Source: Candidatus Woesearchaeota archaeon
Lineage (GTDB): Archaea; Nanobdellota; Nanobdellia; Woesearchaeales; UBA11576
Direction: 5' to 3'
DNA: 64,000 bases
Assembly (NCBI GenBank): GCA_043819495.1
Contig: JBDRET010000024.1
Span: 7,177-71,176 of the forward strand
The notes beneath the pieces are model-generated. The model worked only from the letters and a program-made list of their open reading frames with translations, had not been told where the DNA came from and did not search any database. A program made the translations under genes and the position numbers. Positions 10,700-58,763 of this stretch are shown piece after piece. How positions within the stretch are numbered: the first letter of the stretch is position 1; each line of letters starts with the position of its first letter.

Positions 10700-11386
10700 G
10701 TGTTTGAAATGCCAGCCCCCACAAACAATGTTTTCAATAGTGTTGCAGCACAGTATCTGCAGAAAGACAGCGCATTCTATTCTAATGTGTCAAAAGCACA
10801 TGATATCTTATGTAAGGTCAGGAATCAGTCAGATGGACACGGCATAACATTTGTAGTGAGACGTAATGAGTATATGCCAAGTCTTGACCGTCGCCTCAGG
10901 AACGCAAAGCAGTATAACGAAGAATCACACCTGCTTGATGATCAGGATATAGTCGAAGTAGTTGCAGACCACCGTGAGGTCGACCTTGCGACCATAGTCA
11001 ATAATGAGGGTCAGATAACCGCTGCGAGCGTATACCTGCCTGCGGATGATCTCATGTATCAGGATAAGTATGGGATCCAATGCGACATCTCAACCTTCCT
11101 CGGTTATGCTCCGGATGAGGATGGTGCAGGTGGACGGGCGATAAGCTCTCTCTGTGCGTCAGATATGTTCAATGGTGACGTCGCCATATTGACACTTGGC
11201 GAGACATCGCCTACTGGGAAGAAAGGTGAGATAAACCTGTATTTCCAAGGTGATAGGCTGTATAACAGTAAAGGGAGAGCTGTACGTTGGGACCTTGCAG
11301 ATCCTTTGAGGTTACCTAAGACGCGGAGACAGTTGTACAGTATTCCTTACTTGAGTGAGAGCACCATTGCGCTCACTCCGTTTTAG
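10700..11386 (+). CDS. Hypothetical protein with a divergent DisA_N/DAC-like (diadenylate cyclase) domain
   Basis: Aligns by eye to the CdaA DAC core. 'IVNNEGQITAASVYLPADD' matches 'IIQGxxIAAAASYLPLSD', and 'GGRAISSLCASDMFNGDVAILTLGETSPTG' matches '[29 protein letters not shown]'. The catalytic DGA and RHR motifs are replaced by DLA and GGRA. Confidence 0.35.
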   Translation: MFEMPAPTNNVFNSVAAQYLQKDSAFYSNVSKAHDILCKVRNQSDGHGITFVVRRNEYMPSLDRRLRNAKQYNEESHLLDDQDIVEVVADHREVDLATIVNNEGQITAASVYLPADDLMYQDKYGIQCDISTFLGYAPDEDGAGGRAISSLCASDMFNGDVAILTLGETSPTGKKGEINLYFQGDRLYNSKGRAVRWDLADPLRLPKTRRQLYSIPYLSESTIALTPF

Positions 11387-11462
11387 GCATCGTCACTTTA
11401 TGCTGAACTGCATCAGCTTTTTCTTCTATTTTTTTTCAGCTCGCTAGGCAGTGGTGCTCTCA
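11356..11462 (+). repeat. Hairpin element family 1, copy A (107 nt)
   Basis: Terminal inverted repeat tgagagcacca / tggtgctctca, with internal 'ttgcgctcac ... aactgca ... cagctcgctaggcag'. It overlaps the last codons of the 10700-11386 ORF. Confidence 0.6.
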
Positions 11463-11535
11463 TTTATACAGTAATTCGGGTAGGTGTGTGGATCAGAACA
11501 TAATCTTTATAAGAAAACACTTCATCTTTGGGGTT

Positions 11536-17118: not shown

Positions 17119-17715
17119 ATGAAACTACTTGCATTCGTTGACCTGCATGGTTCTTTGAGCATGATAAAGAAGATCGCATCCACTGTGAAAAAAGAGGATG
17201 TGGATTGCATCATCTGCGCAGGAGATGTGACCATATTCGGAGATTCTATGAAGCAACTTGTGCGAAAGCTCGATGGAATAGGTCCAACAGTATTCATGCT
17301 GCATGGAAACCATGAAGACCGTATCTCTCTGAAGCGTGCCTGTGAAAATACAAAGAATGTCAAGTTCATGCATAAGGCAGTCTTTGAGACTGATGAATAT
17401 GTTATCATGGCTTATGGGGGAGGGGGCTTTTCCACAAAGGATGCAGAGTTTGAGAAATGGACAAAAGAGGCTATGAAAACAATCGGCAAGGACAAGAAGA
17501 TAATCCTTGTCACGCATGCTCCTCCTTATGGAACAAAGTTAGATCTCATACTTGACCAGCCTGCAGGTAATAAGTCGATACGTGCGTTCATAGAGAAAGA
17601 GAAGCCGGTATTGGCCATAAGCGGGCATCTGCATGAGAATTCTTATGTCAAGGATAAGATAGGTAAGACAATCATAGTCAACCCTGGACCTGGTGGGATG
17701 GTTTTTGAGGTATGA
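17119..17715 (+). CDS. Calcineurin-like metallophosphoesterase
   Basis: 'LAFVDLHGS', 'CAGDVTIFG', 'LHGNHED', 'THAPPYG' and 'ISGHLHE' are the canonical MPE motifs. The start is trimmed to MKLLAF. Confidence 0.7.
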   Translation: MKLLAFVDLHGSLSMIKKIASTVKKEDVDCIICAGDVTIFGDSMKQLVRKLDGIGPTVFMLHGNHEDRISLKRACENTKNVKFMHKAVFETDEYVIMAYGGGGFSTKDAEFEKWTKEAMKTIGKDKKIILVTHAPPYGTKLDLILDQPAGNKSIRAFIEKEKPVLAISGHLHENSYVKDKIGKTIIVNPGPGGMVFEV

Positions 17716-17830
17716 TCAGGAACAGTTTATGATGATAGATTATACAATGGAATTTATCAGAATCACATAATCCTTCCATCGACACGATAATTCTACCTTC
17801 GTATTTTATGATAACCGCATCTCCGGTAGA

Positions 17831-17894
17831 ATTGTGGGGTCAAGAACCCTGTGGCTATTTTATCATTCTACTGAATGAGGGTTCTTGACAATCT
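17831..17894 (+). repeat. Hairpin element family 2, copy 1
   Basis: 'attgtggggtcaagaaccc' + 29-nt loop + 'gggttcttgac'. It overlaps the 3' end of taw1. Confidence 0.5.
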
Positions 17895-18796
17895 TCTTTC
17901 ATCAGGAGGACAACTCTTGATGCTTCCTGCTCATCTATCATCTTATAGCCGCAGTGCTTGCAGAGCTCTTCTGCAAACTCTCTGACCTCTGGATGTAGAG
18001 GCATGTTCTCCATGGTAAGGCGTAGCTGTGAGGCCCCTACAAACATGTAAGCCTTCACCTCAACAAAGTGCGGCTCTGCCATCTGTATCAGTTCTGCGTA
18101 CTTTTCAGGGCTGTGCATATTCATCCCTTTGATGGTTGTGAGCCTCAAGCAGGTCCTGGTCCTATCCTTCATCTTATTCAGAATTGCCAAGCTTGTAAGC
18201 AGGCGCTTCCAGCTGTCATTACGCTCTGGTCTGCATATCTTCTTGTGAAGCTCTTCATCAGGAGCATCTATCGAGAGGTATATCTGTGTTGGTGGTTCGA
18301 GCTTTTCCATCACTTCTGGCAGCATGCCATTTGTCACGACAAATGATGAGAAGTTACGCTTCTTGAGCTCTCTTATGAATTCGCTGAGATGCGGGTAGTA
18401 GAGGGTCTCTCCTGTAAGTGATATCGCGAACTGATTAGGATTTTGGGCCTCTTCCAGTTTCTTCCTGTTTGTCTTCTCAAGCCCTCCAAAGCCTGAGATG
18501 AGCTTACGTTGGGCAGCTATGGCCTTATCAATCAGCGCCTTAGGATCGTCAATATTTGTGAATGGCTCATTGTAATGCTCGCGCCAGCAGTATACACAAT
18601 CCATGTCACAGTAATTGGTAGTCACAGACATCTGGCAGCAACGGTGGCAGCTGATGCCGTAGAACTTCTCCTTGTAGCATACTCCCTCATCTCTCAGGGA
18701 CTTCTTTGTCCAGGTACATATCTTGATAGCAGAATGGTCTCCTATGAACTTATACTGCTGTTTTTCTAGGAGTTTCTTGTGGGCTTCCTTGACCAT
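17855..18796 (-). CDS. taw1: tRNA 4-demethylwyosine synthase (Taw1/TYW1, radical SAM)
   Basis: 'GDHSAIKICTWTKKSL' together with the radical-SAM cluster 'CDMDCVYCWRE' is characteristic of TYW1. The start is trimmed to MVKEAH to avoid a 5' overlap with the divergent gene. Confidence 0.65.
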   Translation of the reverse strand: MVKEAHKKLLEKQQYKFIGDHSAIKICTWTKKSLRDEGVCYKEKFYGISCHRCCQMSVTTNYCDMDCVYCWREHYNEPFTNIDDPKALIDKAIAAQRKLISGFGGLEKTNRKKLEEAQNPNQFAISLTGETLYYPHLSEFIRELKKRNFSSFVVTNGMLPEVMEKLEPPTQIYLSIDAPDEELHKKICRPERNDSWKRLLTSLAILNKMKDRTRTCLRLTTIKGMNMHSPEKYAELIQMAEPHFVEVKAYMFVGASQLRLTMENMPLHPEVREFAEELCKHCGYKMIDEQEASRVVLLMKEDCQEPSFSRMIK

Positions 18797-18873
18797 TGCA
18801 TAGAGGAGTAGAGAGGGTTTTTTAAGGGTTGCGGCAGAGTAATATTTAAAAAGCAGAGGATATATAGCATCAT

Positions 18874-19302
18874 ATGCAAATAAAGTCCAAATCAATATTC
18901 ATCATTGTTTTAACATTGCTGCTGATTCTTATTATGGGTTGCAGCGTACCTGTGTGGAAATTAGAGTCAAAGCAGACAAGAAAGGTCTTGAATATCTATG
19001 TGGACGGCGGCTCAGGGGACGATGTCGGAGCCATACTCATATCAAAGATACGTATTGATTCCGGAAAGATAAACCTGACTATACTCGCTGAAGACCCACA
19101 GAACGACGTGCTCAAAGATGCGCTCAATGATATTGAATCCAAGGGCAACTTGTCTCTGACAGCAGAGAACATGGAAGGCGGCAATCTGGTGATGTTTGCG
19201 AAGCCTGTTGCTCCAGATGACCCTAATTATATATATGCTGTCAGCGAATCGCTCAGGATCGATTACGGTATCAGATCAGTGGTCGGAAAGGAAACTATTT
19301 AA
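18874..19302 (+). CDS. Small secreted protein / putative lipoprotein
   Basis: Signal peptide with a lipobox-like 'LILIMGC' sequence. Confidence 0.4.
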   Translation: MQIKSKSIFIIVLTLLLILIMGCSVPVWKLESKQTRKVLNIYVDGGSGDDVGAILISKIRIDSGKINLTILAEDPQNDVLKDALNDIESKGNLSLTAENMEGGNLVMFAKPVAPDDPNYIYAVSESLRIDYGIRSVVGKETI

Positions 19303-19355
19303 ACACTAAAAGCGGAGTGTCTTAGAGTTTCATAATATATCAAAAGAGGCACGAT

Positions 19356-21218
19356 ATGTCAAGATACGCAGGCATAACTATCATTCTTGTATTTCTGCTC
19401 TGTTTAAGTTCTGTATCTTTGACTGCTCTTGCACCAATACCTGATGTCGGACCGAGCGGATGCGTGCCTGCACCAGGGATGCCGTGCGGTTCGACAAGCG
19501 GAAGCAGCGGAACAAAGACAACAACCCAGCAGGCGACGCAGACAAAAACAACAACACCGCAGACTGGCGGATATACTGCAACAAAGCCGGATGAAGGAGA
19601 GAGGACAACCGATACAGGAATACCGCAGCATGTCGAGATAGCCATCAAGAATTATAAGAATCCTGGATGGGGAATTGTATACGATGTCTACACAGGAGAA
19701 CTTCCAGATGATCAAGCATGCCCTCCTGTCGATATAATGGATTGTTATAACCAATGCGGTGATCGTAAATATGGTGATTGTTTAGATCCCTGCGAGGAAT
19801 GGTATGAGCCTTTAGCAAAACAGTGGCAAGAGTGCTATGCTGCTTGGAACGCCAGACACAACCAGTTGATGGAAGCATATCTTATGCAAGAAAATCAGGG
19901 CTATGTGTGCTATGGGGATGATTGCTCTGATGAAGAAGAGATTGATGTTCCAGACGATCTAAAAGACTCTGTCTCAGATAACAAACGTGGCGCGTCATCT
20001 CCCATGGCTCAGCTTGTAGCGCAAATAATACTGCTGACAGATGAAGCAATGACTCCGGGGCAGACAAGAGACTTCACAGCACTTCTTGATCTGCTGAACA
20101 AGGCAGCGACCTCAAAGACAATGAGTGATGCAGAGCTTGAACATTTCATAGGTTCTCTGCAGAAATACCTTGCAGGAAGGATACCTTTTGTTACGGGTAC
20201 TGAAGATTACACTGCACTGACTTCTGCGATGGTCTCGCTTGGCGTGGCAATAGATGAGGCCAAAGCAAGAGGCAATACGCAACTTGTCAACAGGCTGCAG
20301 TCAGACTTTGAAAAAGCAGTGAATGACGTCATAATCACGATAGAAAAAAACAAGCTGGAGAAGGGCAGTCAACTTACAAAAGAACAGATAGGATGGGCCG
20401 ACAATGTGATAGATGGCATGACTCAGGGAGCGAAACAGATGAGGAACCTTGGCCAGAATGCCAATGCCGACAAGGCCCAGAAGCTGGCAAGTGATCTCAA
20501 AGGGGCTTTAGATACATCAGTCGGTAATGTGATGGATACCACAGAAGTGCAGCTTGATCTTGATGACTCAAAACAAAGGACAATCATAGAAGAGATGGAA
20601 CGCAAGCAGTCAAAACCGAGCGTGAACAAGAAGTACATAAACCAGAAACTCGATGAGGCCCGCGTAAGGGTGCAGGAGATGCTCGAAGCAAATTACAGGA
20701 AAACGATGACACTCGAGGAGTTTGAAGCAAAGAATGCTGATTACCAGGCAAGCAGGGATGCAGCAGTGAACATATTCAAGGAGGTCCTGAGCCAGGACAA
20801 AGGTAACACAGAAGCCAATTTTGCGCTTGGGACAATATACAGGAAAGAAAACAGGAAAGAAGACGCAAAAGAACTATATGAACGCGCAATACTGGGAGCA
20901 AGCCCTCAAGACAGGCAAATACTGATCAATGGAATGAAAGATCCTGAACTTACAGCACGGGTCCTGGAAGGAGCAGGATTGGCACAACTCCCAAATAAGG
21001 GCAAAGTCATGAATCACGTAAGGACTGATACAATAAATGAGAATGCCTATGCAGACAAAGCAAAAGAGGAACTGGCATACTTCACCACAAAGATAAGCAA
21101 AGGCCTTGCTATACTTGGAGACAATCCTTTCAGTAATGCCTATGGCACAGTCAAAGGACTGTTTGTAGAGCAGAGAGATAACGCGAATGTAAATGAGGTA
21201 GCGTATGGCACGCCATAA
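19356..21218 (+). CDS. Large secreted protein: signal peptide, Thr/Gln-rich linker, Cys-rich module, then a long helical/TPR-like region
   Basis: Signal peptide 'ITIILVFLLCLSSVSLTALA', then 'TKTTTQQATQTKTTTPQTGGYTATKP', then 10 Cys in ~120 aa, then a TPR-like 'NFALGTIYRKENRKEDAKELYERAILG'. Confidence 0.5.
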   Translation: MSRYAGITIILVFLLCLSSVSLTALAPIPDVGPSGCVPAPGMPCGSTSGSSGTKTTTQQATQTKTTTPQTGGYTATKPDEGERTTDTGIPQHVEIAIKNYKNPGWGIVYDVYTGELPDDQACPPVDIMDCYNQCGDRKYGDCLDPCEEWYEPLAKQWQECYAAWNARHNQLMEAYLMQENQGYVCYGDDCSDEEEIDVPDDLKDSVSDNKRGASSPMAQLVAQIILLTDEAMTPGQTRDFTALLDLLNKAATSKTMSDAELEHFIGSLQKYLAGRIPFVTGTEDYTALTSAMVSLGVAIDEAKARGNTQLVNRLQSDFEKAVNDVIITIEKNKLEKGSQLTKEQIGWADNVIDGMTQGAKQMRNLGQNANADKAQKLASDLKGALDTSVGNVMDTTEVQLDLDDSKQRTIIEEMERKQSKPSVNKKYINQKLDEARVRVQEMLEANYRKTMTLEEFEAKNADYQASRDAAVNIFKEVLSQDKGNTEANFALGTIYRKENRKEDAKELYERAILGASPQDRQILINGMKDPELTARVLEGAGLAQLPNKGKVMNHVRTDTINENAYADKAKEELAYFTTKISKGLAILGDNPFSNAYGTVKGLFVEQRDNANVNEVAYGTP

Positions 21219-21726
21219 AACTGAATCGCACAAGCAGGAACAGCATAAGCAGGAATTGCATAAGAAGGAACAGCATAAGCAGGAATCGCATGAGCAGGAA
21301 ATTGCTCCTGAGAAGCCCAAGCGCAAGATACATTTGGGGTTGCTCATATTAGGGCTATTTATCATATTCGTAGGGTGCACAATCATCGGTTATTTCGGTG
21401 GAACAGTCAAACTAGGCACATGCCAGAACGAGATTTGCTTCATCAATGCATCAGACCAGTGCCTGGTGGCAGACCTCAGATTGCAGGAAGACTTTGGCAT
21501 AGTGAAATATCACTCAGAAAACTGCACATTCCAGAAGACCATAGAACAGGTGACAGACCCTGATTCACAGGACCTGAAGCCTGTGCTTGAAGGCAAGACC
21601 ATGAACTGCACATATGAGAAAGACGATTTTGACGCGCAATGGGTATACTCACTCACTTCAGGAATTGAGAAGTGCGAGGGGGAACTCGTGACAACTATCG
21701 CGCAGCTGATTCTTCTAGCTGAATAG
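21205..21726 (+). CDS. Membrane-anchored Cys-containing extracytoplasmic protein with N-terminal HKQE repeats
   Basis: N-terminal tandem 'QHKQE(L/S)HK' repeats (15-nt DNA repeats at ~21225-21300), then a TM helix, then a Cys-rich domain. It overlaps the upstream gene by 14 nt. Confidence 0.5.
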   Translation: MARHKTESHKQEQHKQELHKKEQHKQESHEQEIAPEKPKRKIHLGLLILGLFIIFVGCTIIGYFGGTVKLGTCQNEICFINASDQCLVADLRLQEDFGIVKYHSENCTFQKTIEQVTDPDSQDLKPVLEGKTMNCTYEKDDFDAQWVYSLTSGIEKCEGELVTTIAQLILLAE

Positions 21727-21867
21727 GGGTAAAGTAAGTTAATGGTGTTAAGTGGGATGCAGCGCTCGCACAGCTTCTTTAATCGCTTCTATCTGCCCAA
21801 CTGCAATACTTACCGCTTATGTCCCCACAGCTCGCTAGGCGGCATCCCACTTAATCTTATTTTACCC
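21727..21867 (+). repeat. Hairpin element family 1, copy B (141 nt), flanked by 9-bp direct repeats
   Basis: Long imperfect terminal IR 'gggtaaagtaagttaa..ttaagtgggatgc / gcatcccacttaatcttattttaccc'. Core 'agcgctcgc ... aactgca ... cagctcgctaggcgg'. Direct repeat 'ctgaatagg' at 21719-21727 and 21867-21875. Confidence 0.6.
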
Positions 21868-21912
21868 TGAATAGGCAAAATATAAAAACCACAAGTCTTG
21901 TGCTTGTCTTTT

Positions 21913-22416
21913 ATGAAATCACTTGATGTAATAACCAAACTACGTGAACTGCAAAAGTTCAAGGAATGGAAGGAGAAGAATAAAGAATCGAATCTTGTCC
22001 ATCTGTTCATAATGATTGAACCAGGGAAGGATATCAAGTATGACATCGGTTTCTTTGATCTGAAGAAAAGTCTTATGACATCATTCCTTGTTGATGATAC
22101 AGTGAAAGACGCAGAAGTGACGGAGACCAAGGAAATATTCACGCAAGACAACCAGAAGATAACTCCACTTGAGCTGGAGAAGGTGAAGATAGGATTCGAG
22201 GAGGCTTTTGAGACTTCACGTACTCTGCAGAAAGAGAAGTACAGGCAGCACGAACCGCTCAAAAAGATAGTGATACTGCAGAATCTTCCAGATGGACAGG
22301 TCTGGAACATAACTTACATCACACAGACATTCCAGACACTGAACATGAAGATTGATGCAGAGACAGGACTTGTCGTCGAGGATTCACTGCACCAGATAAT
22401 CAGCTTCGATAAGTGA
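21913..22416 (+). CDS. Hypothetical protein
   Basis: Open frame with plausible composition. No recognisable motifs. Confidence 0.4.
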   Translation: MKSLDVITKLRELQKFKEWKEKNKESNLVHLFIMIEPGKDIKYDIGFFDLKKSLMTSFLVDDTVKDAEVTETKEIFTQDNQKITPLELEKVKIGFEEAFETSRTLQKEKYRQHEPLKKIVILQNLPDGQVWNITYITQTFQTLNMKIDAETGLVVEDSLHQIISFDK

Positions 22417-22949
22417 TCATTTTAAGATGTCACTGGCTTCATGTAAAGCAAAAACTTCTTCTTATTTTTTTACAAAATTCAAAACCATCATGCAGTGGTG
22501 CAATTCAGTTTCACTGAGTAATGATGTCGAACTGCAGACTATATGTTATTAACGATACTTTTCATCCTAGCTTAATTTAAATACCTGAATATCTTTTACG
22601 AAACATATCCGGTTCTGAATTCTTCATGATTTCAGGACCACCCCAACTTAAAGGCTTCGCTGGGAGAAAAAGAGCCTAAAAAAAGGAGGTTGGAAATTGG
22701 TTCCACAGAGTAACATAAGCTATAAAGATCAACAGAAATGCAAGACTCTTTTTGACTGCGTCGACATGAACTGCGTTGAAGTGGAAACTGAAAACGAAGA
22801 AGAATAAGTGATTACAGTGATATCATCCTTCTGAATCTTTTACCCAGCGGACTTTTTTATTCTCTTCCAACAGAGATTTTAGAATAACTTTCTTAGAAAG
22901 TGGAGAATTCAGATAGTCTGTTTTAACCTATACTCTCTGATCCTGATAT

Positions 22950-23834
22950 TCACTGTATAGGATAATTGAATTTTTGACCATCAGATAGCTTCCCTTCTTT
23001 GAACATCTCTAAGACCTTAAGTGCTGCAGAGACAGTATCCTCATGGCTTGTGGGCCTGTCAGTATTCACATACACGATCATTGACCCGTAAGAGTTTAGT
23101 AATGCCTTCAGCCACTCTGACCTGTACTTACCTTCAATCCTGCGCTGGAACTCAGGGACCTCAAATTTGCATTGGTCATCTTTGACCCTTTGAGCTTTCC
23201 GCTCCATAGCAGTATCTGCACTAAGATCGCATATCACGTAAAGATGAGGTGAATTCTCTGCAGCATAACTATTCCCTTGCATCCTCATTATATCATCAAC
23301 ACTGAGAGGATTGTCCATGGATGATTGGTATACTACGCTTGAGCAGAAGTTCCTTTCACAGTACACATCGATACCATCAAGTATTGCAGGCCTTATCAGC
23401 TTGGATATCAGTTCATGCCTATCCTCTGCATATGCTTCAGCAGCATCTTTTGCAGTATAACCAATGCCCTTCACTTCATGTATTATTTTTTTTCTTATCT
23501 TGAGCCCTATCCTGGCCCAGGTGGGTTCGCATACAAATAGTGTCTTGAGAGGCGCCCCGTTCTCATGCAGGTATCGCTCCTTGAGCATATTGTAATCAGG
23601 AATGATATCATCTGTGCCGTATATATCGTATAGTGAATTTCCTACTTCTGCAGGTATCTTCCCTTCTTCATCAGAAGGCCATAGAAGACGCATATCAAGG
23701 AAGCCATCACCTTCAGCTAAAAGCTTCTTCTTTATCGCATTTATTATGGAGCCTTTTCCGCCGCAGTCAATAGACTCTGCGACAAGGTATAATCCTGAAT
23801 CTTTCGAGTATCTTGAAATAGCCAGCATGATCAC
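22950..23834 (-). CDS. Thymidylate kinase-like P-loop kinase (long form, 294 aa)
   Basis: P-loop 'ESIDCGGKGS', 'FVCEPTWARIGLKIRKKI' (Tmk 'EPggt..g..iR'), and 'ERNFCSSVVYQSS' (Tmk DRY..S..AYQ). Confidence 0.5.
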   Translation of the reverse strand: MIMLAISRYSKDSGLYLVAESIDCGGKGSIINAIKKKLLAEGDGFLDMRLLWPSDEEGKIPAEVGNSLYDIYGTDDIIPDYNMLKERYLHENGAPLKTLFVCEPTWARIGLKIRKKIIHEVKGIGYTAKDAAEAYAEDRHELISKLIRPAILDGIDVYCERNFCSSVVYQSSMDNPLSVDDIMRMQGNSYAAENSPHLYVICDLSADTAMERKAQRVKDDQCKFEVPEFQRRIEGKYRSEWLKALLNSYGSMIVYVNTDRPTSHEDTVSAALKVLEMFKEGKLSDGQKFNYPIQ

Positions 23835-24034
23835 CGATTTATACTGTGATTCCCCTAATTCTCACCTCTCGTTCAAGGCGTATATAAACCTTTTCTTGAG
23901 ATATTTTCATGCTGGTTTTATGTCTTTTAAGTCAAACAAAAATCTTAAATATGCTCTAGAATCCGGTTGCTATACAGTTAGGGTAAGCATAGTGTATTAG
24001 GACATCGTGTTCATATGATGTCCAGATAAAAACG

Positions 24035-25801
24035 GTGCGATACAAGGGGTGTGACAGTTTGACAGAAGATATAGTGAACGATATTCTAGATTCAGAGGGA
24101 AATCTCAAACCGGGATTCAGTGGTATAGGTAAGCTAAGAGGCAAGACAGATTATACAAAAGATGAGGAGACAGTACTAAAGCATTTCTTCACCAATACGC
24201 ACTCAAATGTGTACTGCGCTACAGATAACATGCCAGGAGAGCTATGGGCATTGATAATGGGCCAGTATGCACGGAGCAGCATGACCGGAAGAGATAGGCT
24301 GCTCAAGCTGTTCACTGACATGGAAGAGAAAGGTGAAGCGATATCAGTATCCGAGCTAGCAGAGATGATACGATCTGGACGCGATGTCGCAGGAGCACTT
24401 CAAGCATACCTCAATAAAGCAGGGAATTTCATCGAGATATATGGTGTGAAGTACGGCCATGCATCACTACGAGATTCAGGTGTAATCAGAATATGTTTCG
24501 AAGGGGTGAGCCAGAGAGCCACCAAGTTCCTTGAGAGCGCCAGAGAGGGGGCATATCAGGAACAGTCTACCCGTGCCATCCCTTATGAGATGGAGAATCT
24601 TGGCGTCCCATATGAGATCCGTGACACCAAGTATGAGATCATCATACATGAGCTGGATGAGAAGCTCATCGAACTATACAATAAGATATACAATAAGCTG
24701 ATAGTATACCTGCCTAGTAAGTTTGCTCATCTCAGGGCCAAGGCCGATGAGAAGCTGGCTTCTGAGCTTGGCCGTGATGACGTGACGATAACTGACAGGG
24801 AGTGGAGCAGTATCATAGCTGCAAAGGCATTCGATGTCGCGAGATACCTGCTGCCTCAGAACATGACAACATCTTTAGGCATCACATTGAACACCCGAAG
24901 GTTCCAGGACAAGCTCACTGAATGGCAGTCCTCAGACATCATGGAGATGCAGGTGCTTGGAAAGGTGGCTCAGGTCGAGTCCATGAAGATAAGCCCTACG
25001 CTCATGAAGTACGGCAACAAGAGCCCGTATCATGTGAAGATACCTTCTGCACTTAAGGCGCTCAATAAGAAATTTGTAGTCAACAACAAGGCCTGTGCAG
25101 CTTTCCCTTACACACATTATGATGTCAGCTCAAAGATGATATCTGCCCCTGACGACCTGCAGGAACTGGTCCTTGCAAGCATACTGCTCAATGGTTCAGA
25201 TGGCAGTGTGAGCATGGATGAATTCAAGCAGATTGTAGGGAACATGTCATTTGATGAGAAACGTGAGGTCGCTGAGAGCGTAGCGTCAGATAAACCGTCT
25301 CATGACATATTCTCCAAGACGATGGAATGCGGATCAGTCATCTTTGAGAGAGTCTATGATATAGGTGCATTCAGGGACCTTCAGAGACAGAGAGGGGATA
25401 GGCAGCAATTCAACAGATATTCAGTCATAGGTTACAACATGCCTAAAGAGGTCGCAGAGATCGGTTTAAAGGCTGAGTTTGTCACTCTTATGAATGAAGT
25501 CAAGAATGTATATGATATGATGTGTGAAGAGGGTATCGCTGCGGCAGAGTATGTGCCTGTGATGGCAAATGTCCTGCGACACGTCGTCACAAAAGATCCT
25601 GTCCAGTGTTTCTATGAGGCGAAACTTAGAGCGCAGCCTGCAGGCATCGATTCTTACAGATCAATAGCTCAGCAGGAGATAACCCAACTTCTTGATGTGA
25701 TGCCTGTCTTCAAAGGTCTGGTACCCTACGATGCAGAATATTATAATCTTGGCAGGCTCGAAGAGACAGTCAATGGCAAGCTGAGGAAGCATAAGAAATA
25801 A
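24035..25801 (+). CDS. ThyX-like (flavin-dependent thymidylate synthase family) protein, tandem duplication of the ThyX domain with non-canonical RHR motifs
   Basis: First domain: 'GHASLRDSGVIRICFEG...FLESAREGAYQEQSTRA' aligns to ThyX 'GHETPFEHIVFTFHV...WFRHRIASYNELSGRY', and 'ARYLLPQNMTTSLGITLNTRRFQDKL' matches ThyX 'ARxvLPxNxxTxxxxTxNxRxLxxFL'. Second domain: 'AFRDLQRQRGDRQQFNRYS' and 'YVPVMANVLRHVVTKDPVQCFYEAKLR'. Confidence 0.45.
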   Translation: MRYKGCDSLTEDIVNDILDSEGNLKPGFSGIGKLRGKTDYTKDEETVLKHFFTNTHSNVYCATDNMPGELWALIMGQYARSSMTGRDRLLKLFTDMEEKGEAISVSELAEMIRSGRDVAGALQAYLNKAGNFIEIYGVKYGHASLRDSGVIRICFEGVSQRATKFLESAREGAYQEQSTRAIPYEMENLGVPYEIRDTKYEIIIHELDEKLIELYNKIYNKLIVYLPSKFAHLRAKADEKLASELGRDDVTITDREWSSIIAAKAFDVARYLLPQNMTTSLGITLNTRRFQDKLTEWQSSDIMEMQVLGKVAQVESMKISPTLMKYGNKSPYHVKIPSALKALNKKFVVNNKACAAFPYTHYDVSSKMISAPDDLQELVLASILLNGSDGSVSMDEFKQIVGNMSFDEKREVAESVASDKPSHDIFSKTMECGSVIFERVYDIGAFRDLQRQRGDRQQFNRYSVIGYNMPKEVAEIGLKAEFVTLMNEVKNVYDMMCEEGIAAAEYVPVMANVLRHVVTKDPVQCFYEAKLRAQPAGIDSYRSIAQQEITQLLDVMPVFKGLVPYDAEYYNLGRLEETVNGKLRKHKK

Positions 25802-25811
25802 TATTTTTATC

Positions 25812-26044
25812 GTATTTGTTTAGCCCTATACTCTTTGGCAGTGCCGCGCTGCTATGTATGCGTACCGGGAATAATGCGCAATCAGTCTTGCAGTGGCTAA
25901 AGCCAATCAGTCATCAATATGGCTACGCCCCGGTCTTCGTATCTTGACTCTACCGACGCTAAGCAGCGCCACACTACGTGCGGCTGGTCTTCGAGCATAG
26001 CTCAAAGGAGCGGCGGCACTGCCAGAAATAGCTAAACAAATACT
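25812..26044 (+). repeat. GC-rich 233-bp element bounded by 13-bp perfect inverted repeats (gtatttgtttagc / gctaaacaaatac) with extended imperfect inner IRs; candidate structured ncRNA or MITE
   Basis: Inner IR 'ctttggcagtgccgc' / 'gcggcactgccag'. The interior is GC-rich in an AT-rich genome and carries direct 'ggtcttcg' repeats. The right end's 20-mer 'agaaatagctaaacaaatac' recurs at 2799-2818. Confidence 0.5.
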
Positions 26045-33246: not shown

Positions 33247-33255
33247 CTTTTACAC

Positions 33256-33359
33256 GTCAGCACCGCAGCGCTCGCTTTGCGTATTCTTTTGAATATTCAT
33301 GCACAACTGCATCTTTAATCGTATATATCATTGTCAGCTCGCTAGGCGGCGGTGCTGAC
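33256..33359 (+). repeat. Hairpin element family 1, copy C (104 nt)
   Basis: Terminal IR gtcagcaccgc / gcggtgctgac. Core 'agcgctcgc ... aactgca..ctttaatcg ... cagctcgctaggcgg'. Confidence 0.6.
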
Positions 33360-33392
33360 TTTGTAAGTGGAACTTGCGTTGCTGTTTGACTA

Positions 33393-38612: not shown

Positions 38613-39695
38613 TTAAAAACTAAGCAAGCTTTTAAAAGTTTGGTTTTTCGGGGTGTACTTCGGCTTGTTCAGTGACTGCATCTCTTTTACAATATCAAGA
38701 TGCTCTATGCCTATCTTACCAACATAAAGGTCATTGATAGAACCTCCTTCTGCAAGATACTTCTTCACCTTAAGATACCCATCTATGTAGACATAGTCTT
38801 TCTGGCAGCCTCCAGGTCTTGATGTATCTGCGATGCCGCGTTTGACCCTTGTGGTTATCCTGAATGCTGTCGATGGCTGGAAGAACTGAAGAAGATACTT
38901 ATATATCTCTGAGAAGCTCTTAGTGAGTGCCATCTGGACAGCGACTGCTCTTGCGGCATAATTCTTGATATTCTCATTATTCAACAGTCCGAATCGCTCT
39001 TCATTGACTACTGCAAGTCCCTCTTCTGTAGCGAGATAATCAGGGAATCCGTGGAAGAACATCATGAATGGCTGTTCCCTGCCGTTCTCAGCGCGAAGGA
39101 CATGAGTACCTATCTCGTGTATCACCAGCCTTTTGATGAAATTGTCTGAGAACATGAAATTATCTTTGATGAATATCTTTTTTTTTGATACCAACACTGC
39201 AGCGCTTGCGCTCATGTTCTTTGTATCGACATCATAACCGAAACCGTAATGGTTGACTTCTGCCTGTATCCTATGCTTAGCAGTGATTGGATCTATGGTC
39301 TTTGCTTCTTTCTCGCATTCAAGTGTGAGAAGGTTTGCGGAATGATCAAGGGCTTCATTTGAGGGAGTCCCATACACTTTACGAGAGAACACTGTGAATT
39401 TCTTTGATCCTCTATTGTTCAACATCTCGCACTTGTCTATGAAAAGGTTACGTTTCCTGCTCAAGAGCTCTCCAAAAGCAGAATCATGATCATCTATAGA
39501 ATTCAGCCTGGACTGTACTGCATCATAATCAAAATCAAGCTCAGGGTATATGAAATACGGGTCATAATCAGGATCCGCAAGCACTTTAATCTTTTCAGAT
39601 TCGTTGTTTATCGGATTTATCTCGAAAAAGCTGACTGGATTGATCACTTGCTGTAGACTTGCATCTATGTTCTTGAGTTTGAAAAAATCTGCCAT
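38613..39695 (-). CDS. DUF1704-family putative zinc metallopeptidase (HExxH plus QEGLA-type motif), paralog 1
   Basis: 'HEIGTH' and 'TEEGLAVV'. Confidence 0.5.
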   Translation of the reverse strand: MADFFKLKNIDASLQQVINPVSFFEINPINNESEKIKVLADPDYDPYFIYPELDFDYDAVQSRLNSIDDHDSAFGELLSRKRNLFIDKCEMLNNRGSKKFTVFSRKVYGTPSNEALDHSANLLTLECEKEAKTIDPITAKHRIQAEVNHYGFGYDVDTKNMSASAAVLVSKKKIFIKDNFMFSDNFIKRLVIHEIGTHVLRAENGREQPFMMFFHGFPDYLATEEGLAVVNEERFGLLNNENIKNYAARAVAVQMALTKSFSEIYKYLLQFFQPSTAFRITTRVKRGIADTSRPGGCQKDYVYIDGYLKVKKYLAEGGSINDLYVGKIGIEHLDIVKEMQSLNKPKYTPKNQTFKSLLSF

Positions 39696-43045: not shown

Positions 43046-43186
43046 ATCTGTGAAGTCTTTCTCTACTCCAACGCAGCGCTTGTTTTGCATATCATCTCTA
43101 TTCAGTCAGCCCTACTGCGATATCTATCGCTCAAGTCATCGTAAACTCGCTAGGCAGCGTTGGCGTCTGTATCGACTTCACAGATT
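43046..43186 (+). repeat. Hairpin element family 1, copy D (141 nt)
   Basis: Terminal IR atctgtgaagtc / gacttcacagat plus an inner ccaacgc / gcgttgg pair. Core 'agcgct ... ctactgcga ... aactcgctaggcag'. Confidence 0.55.
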
Positions 43187-44729
43187 ATGCTGCTTTTCTG
43201 TATTCTCTTAGCGAGGGTAGGGGTGGTGGTATCATTGCGCTCCACAACTTGACTTCATTCCCTTTCTGCTTCTGCATAGATGGCAACAGATACTGCACCC
43301 ATACAGGTGCAATGTTCCTGGTCTGGATCTTCCTGTGCTTTTGGGCCTGTTCCTTTTGTCTCATCTGCCTATGCTCTGCAAGGGATATTATCCTGCTTTC
43401 CACATCTTTCTTTGTACGTACGCTTGCCAGATAACTCTCAGGTAATGGTGGCGGAGTCTGTGATGCTTTTCTTGCTCTCACTTCATTCAGGTATGATTCT
43501 GGCAGGGGTGGTGGTGTCTGTATCGCTCTTTTTGCCTGTATGCTGTCCAAGTATGCTTTTGGCAATGGCAGGGGCATCATCTGCTGCGCTTTCTTCACCC
43601 TGACTTCATTCAGGTATGATTCTGGCAGGGGTGGCGGTGTTATCGTTATCTTGCTCGTGACTGCACGTGCACCTACAGGTGCATCCTTGTAAGGACTTTC
43701 TGATTTTACCTGTTCGAGCAGCAAGAGATTATCCCTCAGAGACTGCCTGTCATGCTTCACATATCTCCTGTTTGACAGTGTAGTTATCACATCAAGGGAT
43801 CTCTTCAGCTCATCACCTTTGAAATAAGTCTTTGCCAGTTCATATGCATCAGCGATGCTGTTTTCATCATTCTTGAAGATGAGTGTCTTGTACATCTGCC
43901 TTACAATCTTCTCGCATGATTCTGCAGCATCTTCTTTTGTGAAGTATTCTTTTGCTATCTTCATCGCTCTTTTCAGGTCATCAATCTGCCCGCTCTTCAT
44001 TATAGAGTCATACGTGCGTATTGCAGACATAGCCTCTTTGACATATTCTTTTGATGTCCTTCGGCCTTTAGATCCTCTGTTTTCAGAGACTACATATCTG
44101 AATTCCATACTTTCATTACCTTTGTTTTCAGGATCTGTCGAATAGTCAATGCTCAATCCGAGCTCTTTCCTTGACTTGAATATCTTGTCATAGATGCTGG
44201 CCTCAAAGAATCTTGCAGTCTTCTTCGGATTGTCATATCTGTTGGCTGTATCCACAACATCATCCGTCTTGACAGCTGATCTGCTATCCATCTCTTCAAG
44301 TATATCTGATATCTCATTACCCAGATTGTAGGTGCTGCGTACAGCTCTTTCTCTATTCATTCCGTCCATCTTAATTCCCTCATTATCTCTACCTTTTGCA
44401 GATATTGCCTGATTGCGAATCTCTGTATCTACCAGTATCGGTCTGATTCCTTCCTGTGTCAAGACTTGGCTTAAGCTTCCCATCTTCTTGTATGCAGTAT
44501 TTCCTATCCCTTTGATTATCGGCGTGTCTTCCCTGCATAGTTCTGGTACGTAAGAATTGATGATTGCAAGAGTCCGTGCATCATTGCAGAATATACCTTT
44601 AGCATATATCTCTCCTTTCTCTCTCCTGTCATCAGGGCTGTTCAGCTTTAATATCCAGTCTCCTGTAGTTGAGAGCAAATCGTACAAGTTTGGTTTTTCT
44701 GTTTCCATTTTGTCATACATCTCCTTCAC
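43185..44729 (-). CDS. Hypothetical protein with C-terminal tandem 'PPLPESYLNEVRxKKAxQ' repeats
   Basis: ~105-nt DNA tandem repeats at ~43380-43680 encode four or more 'PPPLPESYL' units. Confidence 0.45.
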   Translation of the reverse strand: MKEMYDKMETEKPNLYDLLSTTGDWILKLNSPDDRREKGEIYAKGIFCNDARTLAIINSYVPELCREDTPIIKGIGNTAYKKMGSLSQVLTQEGIRPILVDTEIRNQAISAKGRDNEGIKMDGMNRERAVRSTYNLGNEISDILEEMDSRSAVKTDDVVDTANRYDNPKKTARFFEASIYDKIFKSRKELGLSIDYSTDPENKGNESMEFRYVVSENRGSKGRRTSKEYVKEAMSAIRTYDSIMKSGQIDDLKRAMKIAKEYFTKEDAAESCEKIVRQMYKTLIFKNDENSIADAYELAKTYFKGDELKRSLDVITTLSNRRYVKHDRQSLRDNLLLLEQVKSESPYKDAPVGARAVTSKITITPPPLPESYLNEVRVKKAQQMMPLPLPKAYLDSIQAKRAIQTPPPLPESYLNEVRARKASQTPPPLPESYLASVRTKKDVESRIISLAEHRQMRQKEQAQKHRKIQTRNIAPVWVQYLLPSMQKQKGNEVKLWSAMIPPPLPSLREYRKAA

Positions 44730-48254: not shown

Positions 48255-51200
48255 ATGGTACTTGAGAAACTTGGAACTTCACTCAGAGACACACTCCACA
48301 AGATAAGTAAAGCAGTCTTTGTAGATGAAAAACTGGTCAATGAGCTGGTCAAGGATATCCAGCGGGCCCTTCTCCAGTCAGATGTCAATGTCAAGATGGT
48401 ATTTGAGCTCTCCAAGAAGATAAAGGAGAGGCTGATGAATGATGATGCACCTCCAGGCCTGACAAAGAAAGAATTCCTCATAAAGATAGTGTATGAAGAG
48501 CTTGTGAACTTCCTTGGGGCTGAAGCATCAACTATAGAGATAACGAAGAAACCAACTAAGATCATGATGGTAGGACTTTTTGGTCATGGAAAATGTGTAC
48601 ATAAGGACAGCAACATACTTCTTTTTGACGGTACAACTGTCGGGGTGCAGCAACTATACGACTCCTACAGGTGCAATGGGGAGGTCGACATAGAGGATGG
48701 ATGTATCATACCTCTTGATGCAGAGCTTTCTGTCCCTTCGATGAACACAAAAAGCCTGAAGATCGAGAAAAAGAGAGTGACTCATCTCTGGAAACTGAAA
48801 TCAAAAGACCTGATGGCTGTATCGCTCGATATGGGAAATGACTTCAACGTCAAGACCACCTGTGAGCACCCGTTCTTTGTACTGAAAGATGGCTTGGTGG
48901 AGCAAAGAAGGGCAGATGAATTAAGGAGAGGGGATTATGTAGCAATACCTGCGAAGGTCACTACAGAATCTGGCAGCATCAACTTTGAGGACTCTCTGAA
49001 GAGACTCAACCTCAACGTGAAGATATCTGATGATAAGACCTTAAGAACACTCAAGAAAAAGATAATAGCAGAACATGGAACACTGATGCGCGCAGCTTAC
49101 TCACTCCCCCATAAACGTAATTATGCTGTATTTACGAGTTCCTTAAAGAAAGGAGAGATCCCAATCCAGCTATGTGGCCTCGGAACATCTGATGCTGTGC
49201 ACTTAAAGCTGCAGAACTCCCAAGATTATATCGATTTTCCCACAAGATCAACACCTGAAATGGCAGAATTCTTGGGCTACATCATAGGCGATGGTCATCT
49301 TTCCCATAATAGTGTCAACATATCAAATAAGGACCCTGAAATAATCGAGAGACTGAAAACATTGTCGAAAGACCTCTTCGGCAGGGAGCTGAAGCTTACC
49401 CCCTGCAAAAGGTCCAAAGGATTGTATGATCTCAGGATAAACTCTAAGACCCTTGTCACGCTCATACATGGGCTGTTCGGCATACCGATAGGAAAGAAAG
49501 GGACTGGACTGGAAGTCCCTCAACTCGTACAACTGTCTTCGCAAGATGTAATCTCCAGATTCCTGAGGGCTTATTTCGATTGCGATGGGTATTTCTGCCG
49601 TACCCAAAGGCAGATTGAAGCAGTATCTGAAAGCAGAGTGCTGCTAAGACAGATACAGCATATGCTGCTAAGGTTCGGGATTGTCGCGAAGATGATCAAT
49701 AAGAGAACCGATGGGAAGGACTATTCCAGGCTAATGGTGCAGGCGAGGGATACTGTCATATTCGGTGAGAGGATAGGCGCATCAATCGCAAGGAAAAGGG
49801 AAGCGCTTGAGAACCATGTTATCATGACCATCAAGCAAGGTGATGGAAAGAAAGACATGATACCGGTCGGCAGCCTCCTGAGAGAATTAAGGGAAATGTC
49901 CGGTTTCTCTTTAAGCCAGATACAGGATGCTGTAAGTTCATATGGCCTGTACGAGAAGAAAGGCATGATATCCAGGACACAATTACGCAATGTCGTCTGT
50001 TTCTATGAGCGTGGCGAGAGCGGCAATTTCCGTAAGTTGATAGGCCTGGTGGAGAACTCGCAAAAAGACAAGCTCAGCGAACAGCTACGGATAAGCCAAC
50101 CATTGGTAAACGCGCTTGTGGGAGAGCTGAGGAACAGAAACATGATCGCAGAAGTCACGAACTCACCTACCAGACTTGTCCTTACAGAAAAAGGGAGTAA
50201 GTATTTTGATGGCATGAAACGATCCTCGGACAGACTGTTCGGGATCCTGAGAACCCTTGCGTATGCTGATGTCTGCTGGGCCAAAGTCAAAGACGTCTCT
50301 AAAGTCAAGAATGACCATCCATATGTGTATGATCTCACTGTCGAGGACAGCCATAACTTCATCGCTGATGGCATTGTGGTGCATAATACGACGACTGCCG
50401 CTAAGTTAGCTAAATACTACCAGAAACGTGGCAATAAATTGGCATTGATATCCACAGATACCTGGAGGCCGGCAGCATTTGAGCAATTGAGACAGTTAGG
50501 TGCGCAGATAAACGTCCCGGTATTCGGAAATCCTAAAGCAAAGAGTCCTGTAGCGATATACAAAGAATTCGAAGACAAGCTTGGCGAGTTTGATCTTGTC
50601 ATCATAGATACTGCAGGAAGGGATGCATTGTCTGATGAGCTCATCAGGGAACTGAATGATATCAATAATGCTGTGCAGGCAGATGAGAAACTTCTTGTCA
50701 TAGGCGGTGATGTCGGGCAGGCTGCGGAAAGGCAGGCACAGACATTCCACGATACCTGTAATGTGACTGGTGTGATAATAACAAAGCTTGAAGGTACAGC
50801 AAAAGGTGGCGGTGCACTGATAGCATGCTCCGTGACCGGCGCAAAAGTAAAGTTCATAGGAGTAGGAGAGAAGATTGATGACCTTGAAGTGTACTCTCCT
50901 GAAAGGTTCGTCGGAAAGATGCTTGGCATGGGCGATCTTGAAGGCCTCCTTGAGAAAGCACGTGAAGCGATAACAGAAGAAGATGCACAGGACCTCGGTA
51001 AGAAACTCCTGAAAGGTGATTTTAACCTCCTTGACCTTTATGAGCAGATGCAGGCGATGAAGAAGATGGGGCCTTTGGGCAAGGTGATGGACATGATACC
51101 TGGCTTTGGTCAGATCAAGCTGCCAAAGGATGCATTGAAAGTCCAAGAAGAGAAGATCAAGAAATGGAAATTCATACTCGACAGCTGCACCAAAGAGGAG

Positions 51201-51437
51201 CTGGAAGACCCTGACAGCAACATGAGCGCACAGCGCATCGACAGGATATCAAAAGGCTCAGGTGTCGGGCCTGGAGAGATACGCGAACTGCTTAAACAGT
51301 ACAAACAGAGCAAGAAGATGATGAAGTCACTGAAAGGACTGGGTGGAGGATCACCTGCGCAGATGGAAAAGATGATGAAGCGCATGGGTGGCGGGATGCC
51401 TGGGATGAAAGATGGAAAGAACATGATGTTCAAGTAA
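48255..51437 (+). CDS. srp54: Signal recognition particle protein SRP54 interrupted by an intein (extein ~462 aa)
   Basis: N domain, then P-loop 'GLFGHGK' + [intein] + 'TTTAAKLA', then 'DTAGR', 'TKLEGTAKGG' and the M domain 'GMGDLEGLLEK...MKKMGPLGKVMDMIPG'. Confidence 0.85.
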   Translation: MVLEKLGTSLRDTLHKISKAVFVDEKLVNELVKDIQRALLQSDVNVKMVFELSKKIKERLMNDDAPPGLTKKEFLIKIVYEELVNFLGAEASTIEITKKPTKIMMVGLFGHGKCVHKDSNILLFDGTTVGVQQLYDSYRCNGEVDIEDGCIIPLDAELSVPSMNTKSLKIEKKRVTHLWKLKSKDLMAVSLDMGNDFNVKTTCEHPFFVLKDGLVEQRRADELRRGDYVAIPAKVTTESGSINFEDSLKRLNLNVKISDDKTLRTLKKKIIAEHGTLMRAAYSLPHKRNYAVFTSSLKKGEIPIQLCGLGTSDAVHLKLQNSQDYIDFPTRSTPEMAEFLGYIIGDGHLSHNSVNISNKDPEIIERLKTLSKDLFGRELKLTPCKRSKGLYDLRINSKTLVTLIHGLFGIPIGKKGTGLEVPQLVQLSSQDVISRFLRAYFDCDGYFCRTQRQIEAVSESRVLLRQIQHMLLRFGIVAKMINKRTDGKDYSRLMVQARDTVIFGERIGASIARKREALENHVIMTIKQGDGKKDMIPVGSLLRELREMSGFSLSQIQDAVSSYGLYEKKGMISRTQLRNVVCFYERGESGNFRKLIGLVENSQKDKLSEQLRISQPLVNALVGELRNRNMIAEVTNSPTRLVLTEKGSKYFDGMKRSSDRLFGILRTLAYADVCWAKVKDVSKVKNDHPYVYDLTVEDSHNFIADGIVVHNTTTAAKLAKYYQKRGNKLALISTDTWRPAAFEQLRQLGAQINVPVFGNPKAKSPVAIYKEFEDKLGEFDLVIIDTAGRDALSDELIRELNDINNAVQADEKLLVIGGDVGQAAERQAQTFHDTCNVTGVIITKLEGTAKGGGALIACSVTGAKVKFIGVGEKIDDLEVYSPERFVGKMLGMGDLEGLLEKAREAITEEDAQDLGKKLLKGDFNLLDLYEQMQAMKKMGPLGKVMDMIPGFGQIKLPKDALKVQEEKIKKWKFILDSCTKEELEDPDSNMSAQRIDRISKGSGVGPGEIRELLKQYKQSKKMMKSLKGLGGGSPAQMEKMMKRMGGGMPGMKDGKNMMFK
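48594..50387 (+). mobile_element. Intein (~598 aa) with a LAGLIDADG homing-endonuclease domain, inserted in the SRP54 P-loop
   Basis: Begins Cys ('K|CVHKDSNILLFDG'), ends 'VVHN|T'. Block B 'THLW'. LAGLIDADG motifs 'LGYIIGDGHL' and 'YFDCDGYF'. Confidence 0.8.
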
Positions 51438-54114: not shown

Positions 54115-55182
54115 CTACTCAGTTTCAAGAATCTTAGGAAAATATACTGGAGGTCTAAGAATTCCTTTTTTCAGCAGATTCCTTACAAGAGTCAGGTCAT
54201 CTAGTCCGATTGCACCTGCGTACAATGTCTTGAAATCACCATCCTCTTCTGCGAACTTCCGTATCTTTACAAGACCTTGAAGATATATGTGATCCTTGAT
54301 GTAGCCCCCTCCCCTGAAAACCCTAAACGTCAGATCCCACGCCTGATCATCACTAAGACCTTCTGTTTTCATGATGTCAAATGTCTTTCGGAAATCCTTA
54401 CCTTTCATGACAGAGTCAACCGCCACTACACGGAGTGCGCAGTCCCTTAACCTTTCAGTGCTCAGAGTGCCTGTCTTTTCCTCCAGAAACGATGCGAGCC
54501 CTTCTTCTGTGTCCAAGTAGCCTGGAAGACCCAGGCCCATTATCTTCAAGGGTTGGGCGTATCCATTTGCACACCTGAACACATGCCCCAGGACTTCATG
54601 GATGCAAATCCTTGCGAGCTCAGCTTCACTCACGACGCGATCCCTACCGACACCAATCTTATTTTCAGCAGAATAAACTGTGGTAAGCCTCTTGTCAGAA
54701 AGTTCCACTTTCCACCCGATGAGCTTATTTTCCCTAAGAACAGTCTCAATCTTCTCTTTTATCCTTGATGCCGGAATTGTATTCTCCTGTTCAGCTGGGG
54801 GAGTCTCTTTTGATATTTTTAGAGAGTACTCCAGAAGATATTTAGAAGGATATCCATAAAGCTGCATTGTCAGCTCTTTTATTTTTTCGCTTCTCCCAAT
54901 ATTCATCACTATTGTATTCGCAGTCAGAAGTTCTGTTCTTTTTCTCTCAAATATGTCCTTGAGATCACACTCCGGAATCGTGATATCCTGCAGCAGGTCA
55001 TTGATTGCAGATGGATCGTACCCAATCTTGCGGTATTGGAACTCTGGCGCTTCAATTTCTCCTCTCAGAAACCTGCTTTTTTGTTGTGCTCCATTGAGGG
55101 GAGTACAATAAAGCAACGGTTTTATCTGCTCAGAGCATCCTTTCAAGATGTCTGTAATCCTGTTGAGGTGGTCTATGTTCAT
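54115..55182 (-). CDS. DUF1704-family putative zinc metallopeptidase, paralog 2
   Basis: 'HEVLGH' and 'TEEGLASF'. Paralog of 38613-39695. The start is trimmed to MNIDHL. Confidence 0.5.
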   Translation of the reverse strand: MNIDHLNRITDILKGCSEQIKPLLYCTPLNGAQQKSRFLRGEIEAPEFQYRKIGYDPSAINDLLQDITIPECDLKDIFERKRTELLTANTIVMNIGRSEKIKELTMQLYGYPSKYLLEYSLKISKETPPAEQENTIPASRIKEKIETVLRENKLIGWKVELSDKRLTTVYSAENKIGVGRDRVVSEAELARICIHEVLGHVFRCANGYAQPLKIMGLGLPGYLDTEEGLASFLEEKTGTLSTERLRDCALRVVAVDSVMKGKDFRKTFDIMKTEGLSDDQAWDLTFRVFRGGGYIKDHIYLQGLVKIRKFAEEDGDFKTLYAGAIGLDDLTLVRNLLKKGILRPPVYFPKILETE

Positions 55183-55184
55183 TT

Positions 55185-58760: not shown

Positions 58761-58763
58761 AAT

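Follow-up and report, generated by a model that had tools for sequence, protein, structure and literature searches.

A MITE-like foldback element with a conserved hairpin core, probably inserted between two genes of a Woesearchaeota archaeon

MITEs (miniature inverted-repeat transposable elements) of prokaryotes include SM1-SM4 of Sulfolobus, the Correia elements of Neisseria and, in enterobacteria, MITEEc1 and the enterobacterial repetitive intergenic consensus (ERIC) sequences. DPANN genomes are very small and gene-dense, and their mobile DNA is poorly described; a MITE-Tracker census of archaeal genomes counted 105 MITEs/Mb in one Woesearchaeal genome without describing the families (PMC11602168). 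Here we analyse family 1, a short palindromic repeat found in four copies (A to D) on a 64-kb stretch of a Woesearchaeota archaeon genome (contig JBDRET010000024.1, assembly GCA_043819495.1), the whole of which is called the window below. The constant part of the family is a hairpin module of ~105 nt, composed of a lineage-specific closing stem and a pyrimidine-rich core of ~80 nt. Copy B (21728-21866, 139 bp) lies between the genes 21205-21726 and 21913-22416, and we assign a probability of about 0.78 to the reading that it is a non-autonomous MITE-like foldback element inserted between these two genes. The window is chromosomal and codes for an archaeal CCA-adding enzyme, ThrRS, ThyX, SHMT, aRF1 and an intein-containing SRP54.

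Family 1 resembles MITEs in being small (139 bp for copy B, where MITEs have less than ~500 bp), non-coding, multi-copy and intergenic, with terminal inverted repeats (TIRs), a short target duplication, genome-specific bursts and no transposase of its own. Near-identical copies stand at unrelated loci (L001, L090 and L091 of genome JAHJSS, L065 and L081 of genome CAZNGE, and more than 20 copies in genome JABMQF), and the duplicated sequence differs from copy to copy (9/9 at copy B and 8 bp in six related copies; none at copies C and D or at the copies with a short stem). It differs from MITEs in that the centre and not the termini is the most conserved part, the inner stem varies and the same module is found within at least three TIR types. 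In many copies neither a TIR nor a duplication can be recognised, and no parent insertion sequence (IS) was found in the loci scanned. This combination of a conserved centre with variable ends inverts the usual MITE design.

Three other groups of elements are also comparable. With the repetitive extragenic palindromic (REP) sequences, the bacterial interspersed mosaic elements (BIMEs) and the REPINs (REP doublets forming hairpins), which are mobilised by the REP-associated tyrosine transposase (RAYT) of the Y1 HUH type, family 1 shares intergenic imperfect palindromes, a conserved motif beside the stem, genome-specific types and mosaic head-to-head doublets of related modules at several loci per genome. 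However, its modules measure ~105 nt instead of 20-40 nt, its hosts are archaea, and several subfamilies have TIRs and target duplications, while REPs make none. A GTAG-type 5' tetranucleotide was not seen by eye in a few short-stem copies, which were not tallied, and no RAYT or Y1 transposase was found among the proteins scanned. Like foldback elements, in which long inverted arms surround a short non-palindromic centre, family 1 has long complementary arms closing a unique centre, and the complementarity is strand-symmetric and at the DNA level, but its arms, at 11-35 bp, are short and it is the centre that is conserved. The IS256, ISL3, IS6 and IS66 families of ISfinder make duplications of 8 or 8-9 bp. 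The family-1 duplication of 8 bp (8-9 bp for copy B) fits them, a lead taken from length only. Family 1 is a so far undescribed MITE-like family of several Woesearchaeota and Nanoarchaeota metagenome-assembled genomes (MAGs), an ordinary kind of element with an unusual architecture.

Copy B and its insertion site

Two copies of the 9-mer CTGAATAGG lie on the + strand, at 21719-21727 and at 21867-21875. Both copies directly abut the arms of an inverted repeat, GGTAAAGTAAG (21728-21738) and CTTATTTTACC (21856-21866), which match in 10 of 11 positions. Past a 9-nt bulge confined to the left arm (TTAATGGTG, 21739-21747), the inverted repeat runs inward into a perfect 13-bp stem, P1, formed by TTAAGTGGGATGC (21748-21760) and GCATCCCACTTAA (21842-21854). 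This inner stem closes a centre of 79 nt, the family-1 core (21762-21840; GCGCTCGC ... GCCCAACTGCA ... CAGCTCGCTAGGC), which is pyrimidine-rich on the + strand. An earlier note on this DNA had described a 9-bp direct repeat immediately outside imperfect TIRs of ~35 bp. The repeat was confirmed at both positions and the TIRs are indeed imperfect, but their length was overstated, since the arms comprise 33 and 25 nt with 24 bp paired. As the same note had claimed, the left repeat supplies the stop codon of the upstream gene (TAG, 21724-21726 of the open reading frame (ORF) 21205-21726). The right repeat is followed after one base by a putative TATA box of the downstream gene (AAAATATAAAAAC, 21877-21889, + strand), 24 nt before the ATG at 21913. 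As the repeat has a G at its end and the TIR a G at its beginning (G/C at the junctions), readings of the duplication as 7, 8 or 9 bp are all possible.

The significance of this repeat comes from its geometry and not from the number of 9-mers. The count alone is not significant (0.61 expected; two or more in 7 of 100 shuffles), and the window holds 287 pairs of exact 9-mer direct repeats 60-400 nt apart. Among all of these, only the CTGAATAGG pair stands directly around an inverted repeat of 11 nt with no more than one mismatch, an arrangement that occurred in 0 of 50 locally shuffled windows. By our estimate, a 9/9 repeat abutting a 10/11 TIR has a chance of ~1e-4 to 1e-3, the four copies and the freedom of the boundaries being allowed for. 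In the 64-kb window the 9-mer has no occurrence on either strand apart from the two at copy B.

From this geometry we infer an insertion by cut and repair. A transposase supplied in trans would have cut the target ...CTAG/CTGAATAGG/CAAAATAT... with a stagger of 8-9 bp, and gap repair would then have duplicated CTGAATAGG on both sides. The element would have entered a gap of a few bases that separated the stop codon of 21205-21726 from the TATA box of 21913-22416. The order before insertion implied by this model, a stop codon, 4 nt and a TATA box, is plausible for a compact genome.

The flanking genes give some information on the native sequence. In the one relative with the upstream gene, here called B_up (locus L108), the ortholog also ends in Glu-stop (GTC GAA TGA compared to GCT GAA TAG), so that the left 9-mer is native gene sequence. 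TATA-like boxes similar to that of the window precede the ortholog of the downstream gene in L072 and L115. In four relatives (L072, L113, L114 and L115) the downstream gene adjoins a wyosine or a metallophosphoesterase gene, with neither the element nor the block that precedes it in the window. This three-gene block (18874-21726) consists of a 122/142-aa ORF, a 620-aa TPR protein and the 173-aa B_up; it is found in the window lineage only and in part in L108, and copy B forms its right edge. The exact protein look-up of the downstream gene matched this organism only, and the sole close homolog of the upstream gene (99% identity) is likewise from this organism. The region 17205-25726 of the window is 99.977% identical to contig JAZDHU010000095.1 of assembly GCA_043805635.1.

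A different palindromic element was observed in genome JAUVBP (L115, 920-1085), with 14-bp arms GCAGCAGATAAGCC/GGCTTATCTGCTGC around ~125 nt. It lies just upstream of the TATA box of the ortholog of the downstream gene, the position that copy B holds in the window.

Family 1 in other genomes

The four copies of the window share the pattern GCGCT-N33-ACTGC-N26-28-CTCGCTAGGC on the + strand, and a covariance model recovered exactly these four with 71-91 bits, the next match having 13 bits; this corresponds to ~1 copy per 16 kb. Copy A extends over 11355-11463 (core 11369-11449). Copy C (33254-33361, core 33268-33347) is flanked by two - strand genes, one with its stop at 33393 and the other, DUF167-like, with its start at 33246. 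Copy D (43046-43185, core 43076-43155) has a perfect 12-bp outer inverted repeat, ATCTGTGAAGTC (43046-43057) and GACTTCACAGAT (43174-43185), and the final T of the element contributes to the stop codon of the - strand ORF 43185-44729.

A scan of genomes, one per species, with the exact core pattern yielded at least 107 loci. Among the matches listed, ~91 are true copies with a closing stem, all from Woesearchaeota or Nanoarchaeota MAGs, and the remaining 16 are bacterial and have no stem. With the covariance model 127 copies were found in 735 kb (the window and the fetched loci), nearly all of them DPANN, and some MAGs carry dozens; ~120 copies were obtained from genomes of Woesearchaeota and Nanoarchaeota. 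Three of the MAGs with family 1 are labelled 'uncultured Methanosarcinales archaeon' (CAZNGE, CAZLYC and CAZXTQ loci; L068, L065 and others). For CAZNGE (L068), the one label that was checked, the genes are syntenic with the window at 64-80% protein identity, so the label looks wrong. The copies are intergenic in 90 of 95 cases, show no bias in orientation to their neighbours (19/18/17/15), and share no consistently open reading frame among the 95. On the element no tRNA was found by ARAGORN and no Rfam match at the gathering threshold or at E<=5.

Two other origins were considered for the family and rejected. A protein-coding reading was suggested by a 3' arm that looks 3-periodic (GGN GGN GCN...) and by a 42-aa ORF spanning copy B, but this ORF is not conserved, no frame stays consistently open and the lengths of the spacers do not divide by three. 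A viral origin had one IMG/VR match, which with 13 bits and no stem is due to chance; the family is absent from IMG/VR.

Direct evidence for mobility is provided by three other DPANN genomes, in which near-identical family-1 elements stand at different loci with common TIRs and differing 8-bp duplications. In JAHJSS the TIR GTATTTGTTTAGC is flanked by GTTTTATT at L001 and by ATTCTTTT at L090, while at L091 one pair of these TIRs contains two modules and is flanked by [A/G]AAGGTTG (7/8). The TIR GTATGTAATAAGTC of CAZNGE is found within TTTTAACC at L081 and within GGTCACT[T/C] (GGTCACTT/C) at L065, and in JABMQF, where more than 20 copies form one near-identical subfamily, the TIR GCATGTAATAAGTC at L004 is flanked by GATATAAT. 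Common TIRs with differing 8-bp duplications at unrelated loci are the signature of transposition. In a blind test, an 8-bp repeat (at most one mismatch) beside a 10-nt TIR (at most two mismatches) was found in 8 of 95 copies compared to 0-4 in controls, and six of these eight have G[TC]AT[GT]T termini. Exact direct repeats of at least 7 nt at symmetric offsets were present in 24 of 85 copies and in 8-9 in each of three controls. The termini of copy B (GGTAAAGTAAGTT / GGTAAAATAAGAT) and the terminus of copy D (ATCTGTGAAGTC) loosely resemble GTATGTAATAAGTC.

Within one genome the copies are more alike than those that share a gene junction across genomes, and genome-specific sequence types even at shared junctions indicate a lineage-specific expansion. 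The suggestion of the earlier note that family 1 is, or derives from, a non-autonomous mobile element is supported, for copy B by geometry and statistics and for the family by direct comparative evidence. Its description of the TIRs as not shared is true of the inner stem, which differs between copies, but not of the outer TIR types, which are common within subfamilies.

Positional orthology was also considered as a sign of an ancient functional element, based on ~27 pairs of copies with a common neighbour gene and ~10 with the exact junction in common. It was not used: such numbers are similar to random occupancy of ~10% of permissive spacers in our rough estimate, and the sequence types are genome-specific.

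A separate element of 232 bp in the window (25812-26043) has perfect 13-bp TIRs, GTATTTGTTTAGC / GCTAAACAAATAC, between flanks that match in 7 of 8 positions (TTTTTATC / TTGTTATC). Its cargo of 206 nt is unlike family 1, GC-rich, structured and strongly folding (z -5.55), and Rfam gave no match for the element. In JAHJSS (L001, L090 and L091) family-1 modules are bracketed by this TIR type, and its occurrence here shows that the TIR/8-bp-duplication system is present in the genome of the window. A 20-mer of this element, AGAAATAGCTAAACAAATAC, recurs as a lone end at 2799-2818.

Family-1 copies are frequent and sit exactly at gene ends and promoters, as copy B between a stop codon and a TATA box and copy D in a stop codon. 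They can therefore change expression, act as marks of synteny breakpoints, disrupt assemblies and be used to tell strains apart. The covariance model, the TIR types and the 8-bp duplication are a handle for finding the transposase or another protein that recognises the core.

The module and alternative readings

The core contains the motifs GCGCTCGC, GCCCAACTGC and AGCTCGCTAGGC, and the module takes four forms, namely bare, within TIR 'shells' of different types that have 8-bp duplications, in tandem pairs sharing one shell and in head-to-head doublets with related modules. In 73 non-redundant copies, 91% of the cells of the closing stem are paired, compared to 75% after column shuffles and 23-59% with the partner slid, and 182 double-sided changes were counted where 55 were expected, a number that none of 500 shuffles reached. 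The arms are therefore truly complementary while differing in sequence.

Such arms would also be expected if family 1 consisted primarily of genes for small structured RNAs or of cis elements acting as RNA, with the closing stem as an RNA helix preserved by compensatory changes. TIR shells would then carry the module only occasionally, and the repeat at copy B would come from a shell or from chance. The strand-asymmetric, pyrimidine-rich core with motifs conserved across genomes is in agreement with this, as is the RNA fold of copy B, which is better than that of shuffles (z -2.98). Furthermore, one gene junction is shared by copy C and the copy at L059, whose stems are unrelated and both perfectly paired, but shared junctions are about as numerous as the random occupancy of permissive spacers estimated above would give. 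We consider an RNA origin unlikely, since the stem shows no excess of G·U over A·C (16 cells each, with 68 other non-Watson-Crick cells) and one-sided changes from G-C to G-U are rare (15 versus the 182 double-sided ones). RNAalifold and a pair-frequency scan supported no interior helix but a 3-bp hairpin (UGC-CCAACU-GCR), and Rfam gave no match. There is no orientation bias relative to genes and, by eye, no conserved promoter, and the near-identical copies with target-site duplications within genomes show transposition. With G·T and A·C mismatches in equal numbers and no further interior helix supported, the stem complementarity appears to be a property of the DNA (palindrome, foldback or cruciform) and not an RNA fold. 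A short P2 helix (GCTGAC/GUCAGC or GCA/UGC) was tried as well and covaries only partly, and an informal look at the consensus revealed neither a K-turn nor a bulge-helix-bulge at the junction of stem and core.

The core is pyrimidine-rich on one strand with CTG(C) every 10-12 nt (e.g. 21762-21840 of the window), and the heptamer GCTCGCT forms a direct repeat at its two ends; judged from the sequence, this spacing and the repeat may represent phased protein-binding sites. Outside of the search pattern, CGC after GCGCT, GCC, A before ACTGC and G before CTCGC are conserved in at least 90% of the copies. Most likely, though we say so with low confidence, the conserved core would be the cis-acting part that is recognised by the mobilising machinery or by a DNA-binding host factor. 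It could be a cis-acting mobilisation site, a protein-binding hairpin or an exapted element. A more far-reaching proposal, possible but in our view doubtful, is that the ~105-nt module is an autonomous functional unit and not transposon filler. It might be a DNA hairpin or cruciform that acts in cis and is recognised by a protein specific to DPANN, which mobilises it or organises the chromosome. Alternatively, it might be an element exapted by the host and captured again and again by transposons with different TIRs. Such a unit would account for a centre that is conserved across genera between ends that vary, and for the recurrence of BIME-like doublets.

The doublets were observed in CAZLYC, CAZNGE and JAHWIS, where the module often stands head to head with a related but distinct module, GCTCGCTCTGA...GCTAGCTCGCTAGG or GCGCTCCCAGCG...GGGTCGCAGGC (L030, L049, L058, L069, L083, L088, L008, L037, L021 and L095). 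All 11 adjacent pairs are 5'-to-5', with a spacing of 0-12 nt in ten cases and of 46 nt in L095. Neither the partner types nor doublets occur in the window.

Several observations weigh against copy B and family 1 as transposed elements. The repeat of copy B reads as 9 bp compared to 8 bp in the well-resolved relatives, and its TIR is only loosely like theirs. A perfect duplication is present at just one of the four window copies. Of the shorter or degenerate duplications that the earlier note thought conceivable at the others, copies C and D have none, and the candidate at copy A, TACAGTA[T/A]TTC (10/11; 11336-11346 and 11467-11477), is offset from the stem by 9 nt on one side and 3 nt on the other and comes close to being self-complementary, and is thus ambiguous. 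At the stem ends of short-stem copies in other genomes duplications are not enriched; these copies are either old insertions with decayed termini or bare modules spreading another way. The transposase or integrase envisaged by the earlier note was not found by Pfam among 30 large ORFs of the window or 10 recurrent neighbours (~0.7 Mb of loci), all of which are housekeeping. The same holds for the empty-site alleles that it had anticipated in relatives or metagenomes. Among homologs of both flanking genes none was found for copy B, synteny or alignability breaking at the site. In L108, the only relative with the upstream gene (67% amino acid identity), the gene downstream is unrelated, and the 241-nt spacer lacks the element and cannot be aligned. 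An exact search of metagenomes for the joined flanks of the implied empty site (...TTCTAGCTGAATAGGCAAAATATAAAAACC...) gave 0 matches, as did the search for a sibling of copy B sharing its stem. Finally, the core blocks in the search pattern are partly invariant by construction, and copies found only by the covariance model vary in all core blocks.

Some of these points would suit a resident palindromic intergenic repeat, REP/BIME-like or a gene-end hairpin, that was never moved by cut-and-paste with duplication and has the 9-mer next to it by coincidence. The copies C and D and the short-stem copies without duplications, the hundreds of 9-mer pairs in the window, the count that 7 of 100 shuffles equal and the head-to-head doublets, which recall BIME organisation, are all compatible with it. 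We regard such a coincidence as quite improbable, since the 9/9 repeat abutting the TIR is expected so rarely by chance and was not reproduced in 50 shuffles, and the same geometry with other sequences is found in five or six relatives. The least probable explanation, which we hardly credit, would make copy B what is left of a site-specific integration, either a cassette flanked by att sites or the edge of the inserted TPR-B_up block, with CTGAATAGG as recombination core; copy B does lie exactly at the right edge of the three-gene block (18.9-21.7 kb) absent from four relatives, but the 9-mer is neither at the left edge nor elsewhere in the window, no integrase is among the tested ORFs, and the flanking repeats of related copies all differ, which excludes site-specific integration for these copies. 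We therefore retain the insertion of a MITE-like foldback element as the reading of copy B.

Further observations in the window

The ORF 43185-44729 (- strand), which ends in copy D, contains a 123-bp tandem duplication (43465-43517 and 43588-43640, 87% identical over 53 nt) and has no Pfam match. A tRNA-like match to Rfam RF00005 at 58763-58834 (- strand; 29.5 bits, gathering score 29) appeared in E-value mode only; since it was missed by ARAGORN and by the gathering-mode scan, it suggests an atypical tRNA gene. An intein that carries a LAGLIDADG homing-endonuclease domain (Pfam Intein_splicing and LAGLIDADG_3) interrupts the SRP54 gene (48255-51437, + strand). Two paralogous proteins encoded on the - strand (38613-39695 and 54115-55275) match the Pfam family MATCAP (microtubule-associated tyrosine carboxypeptidase) with E-values of 4e-56 and 8e-61, an unexpected family name in an archaeon.

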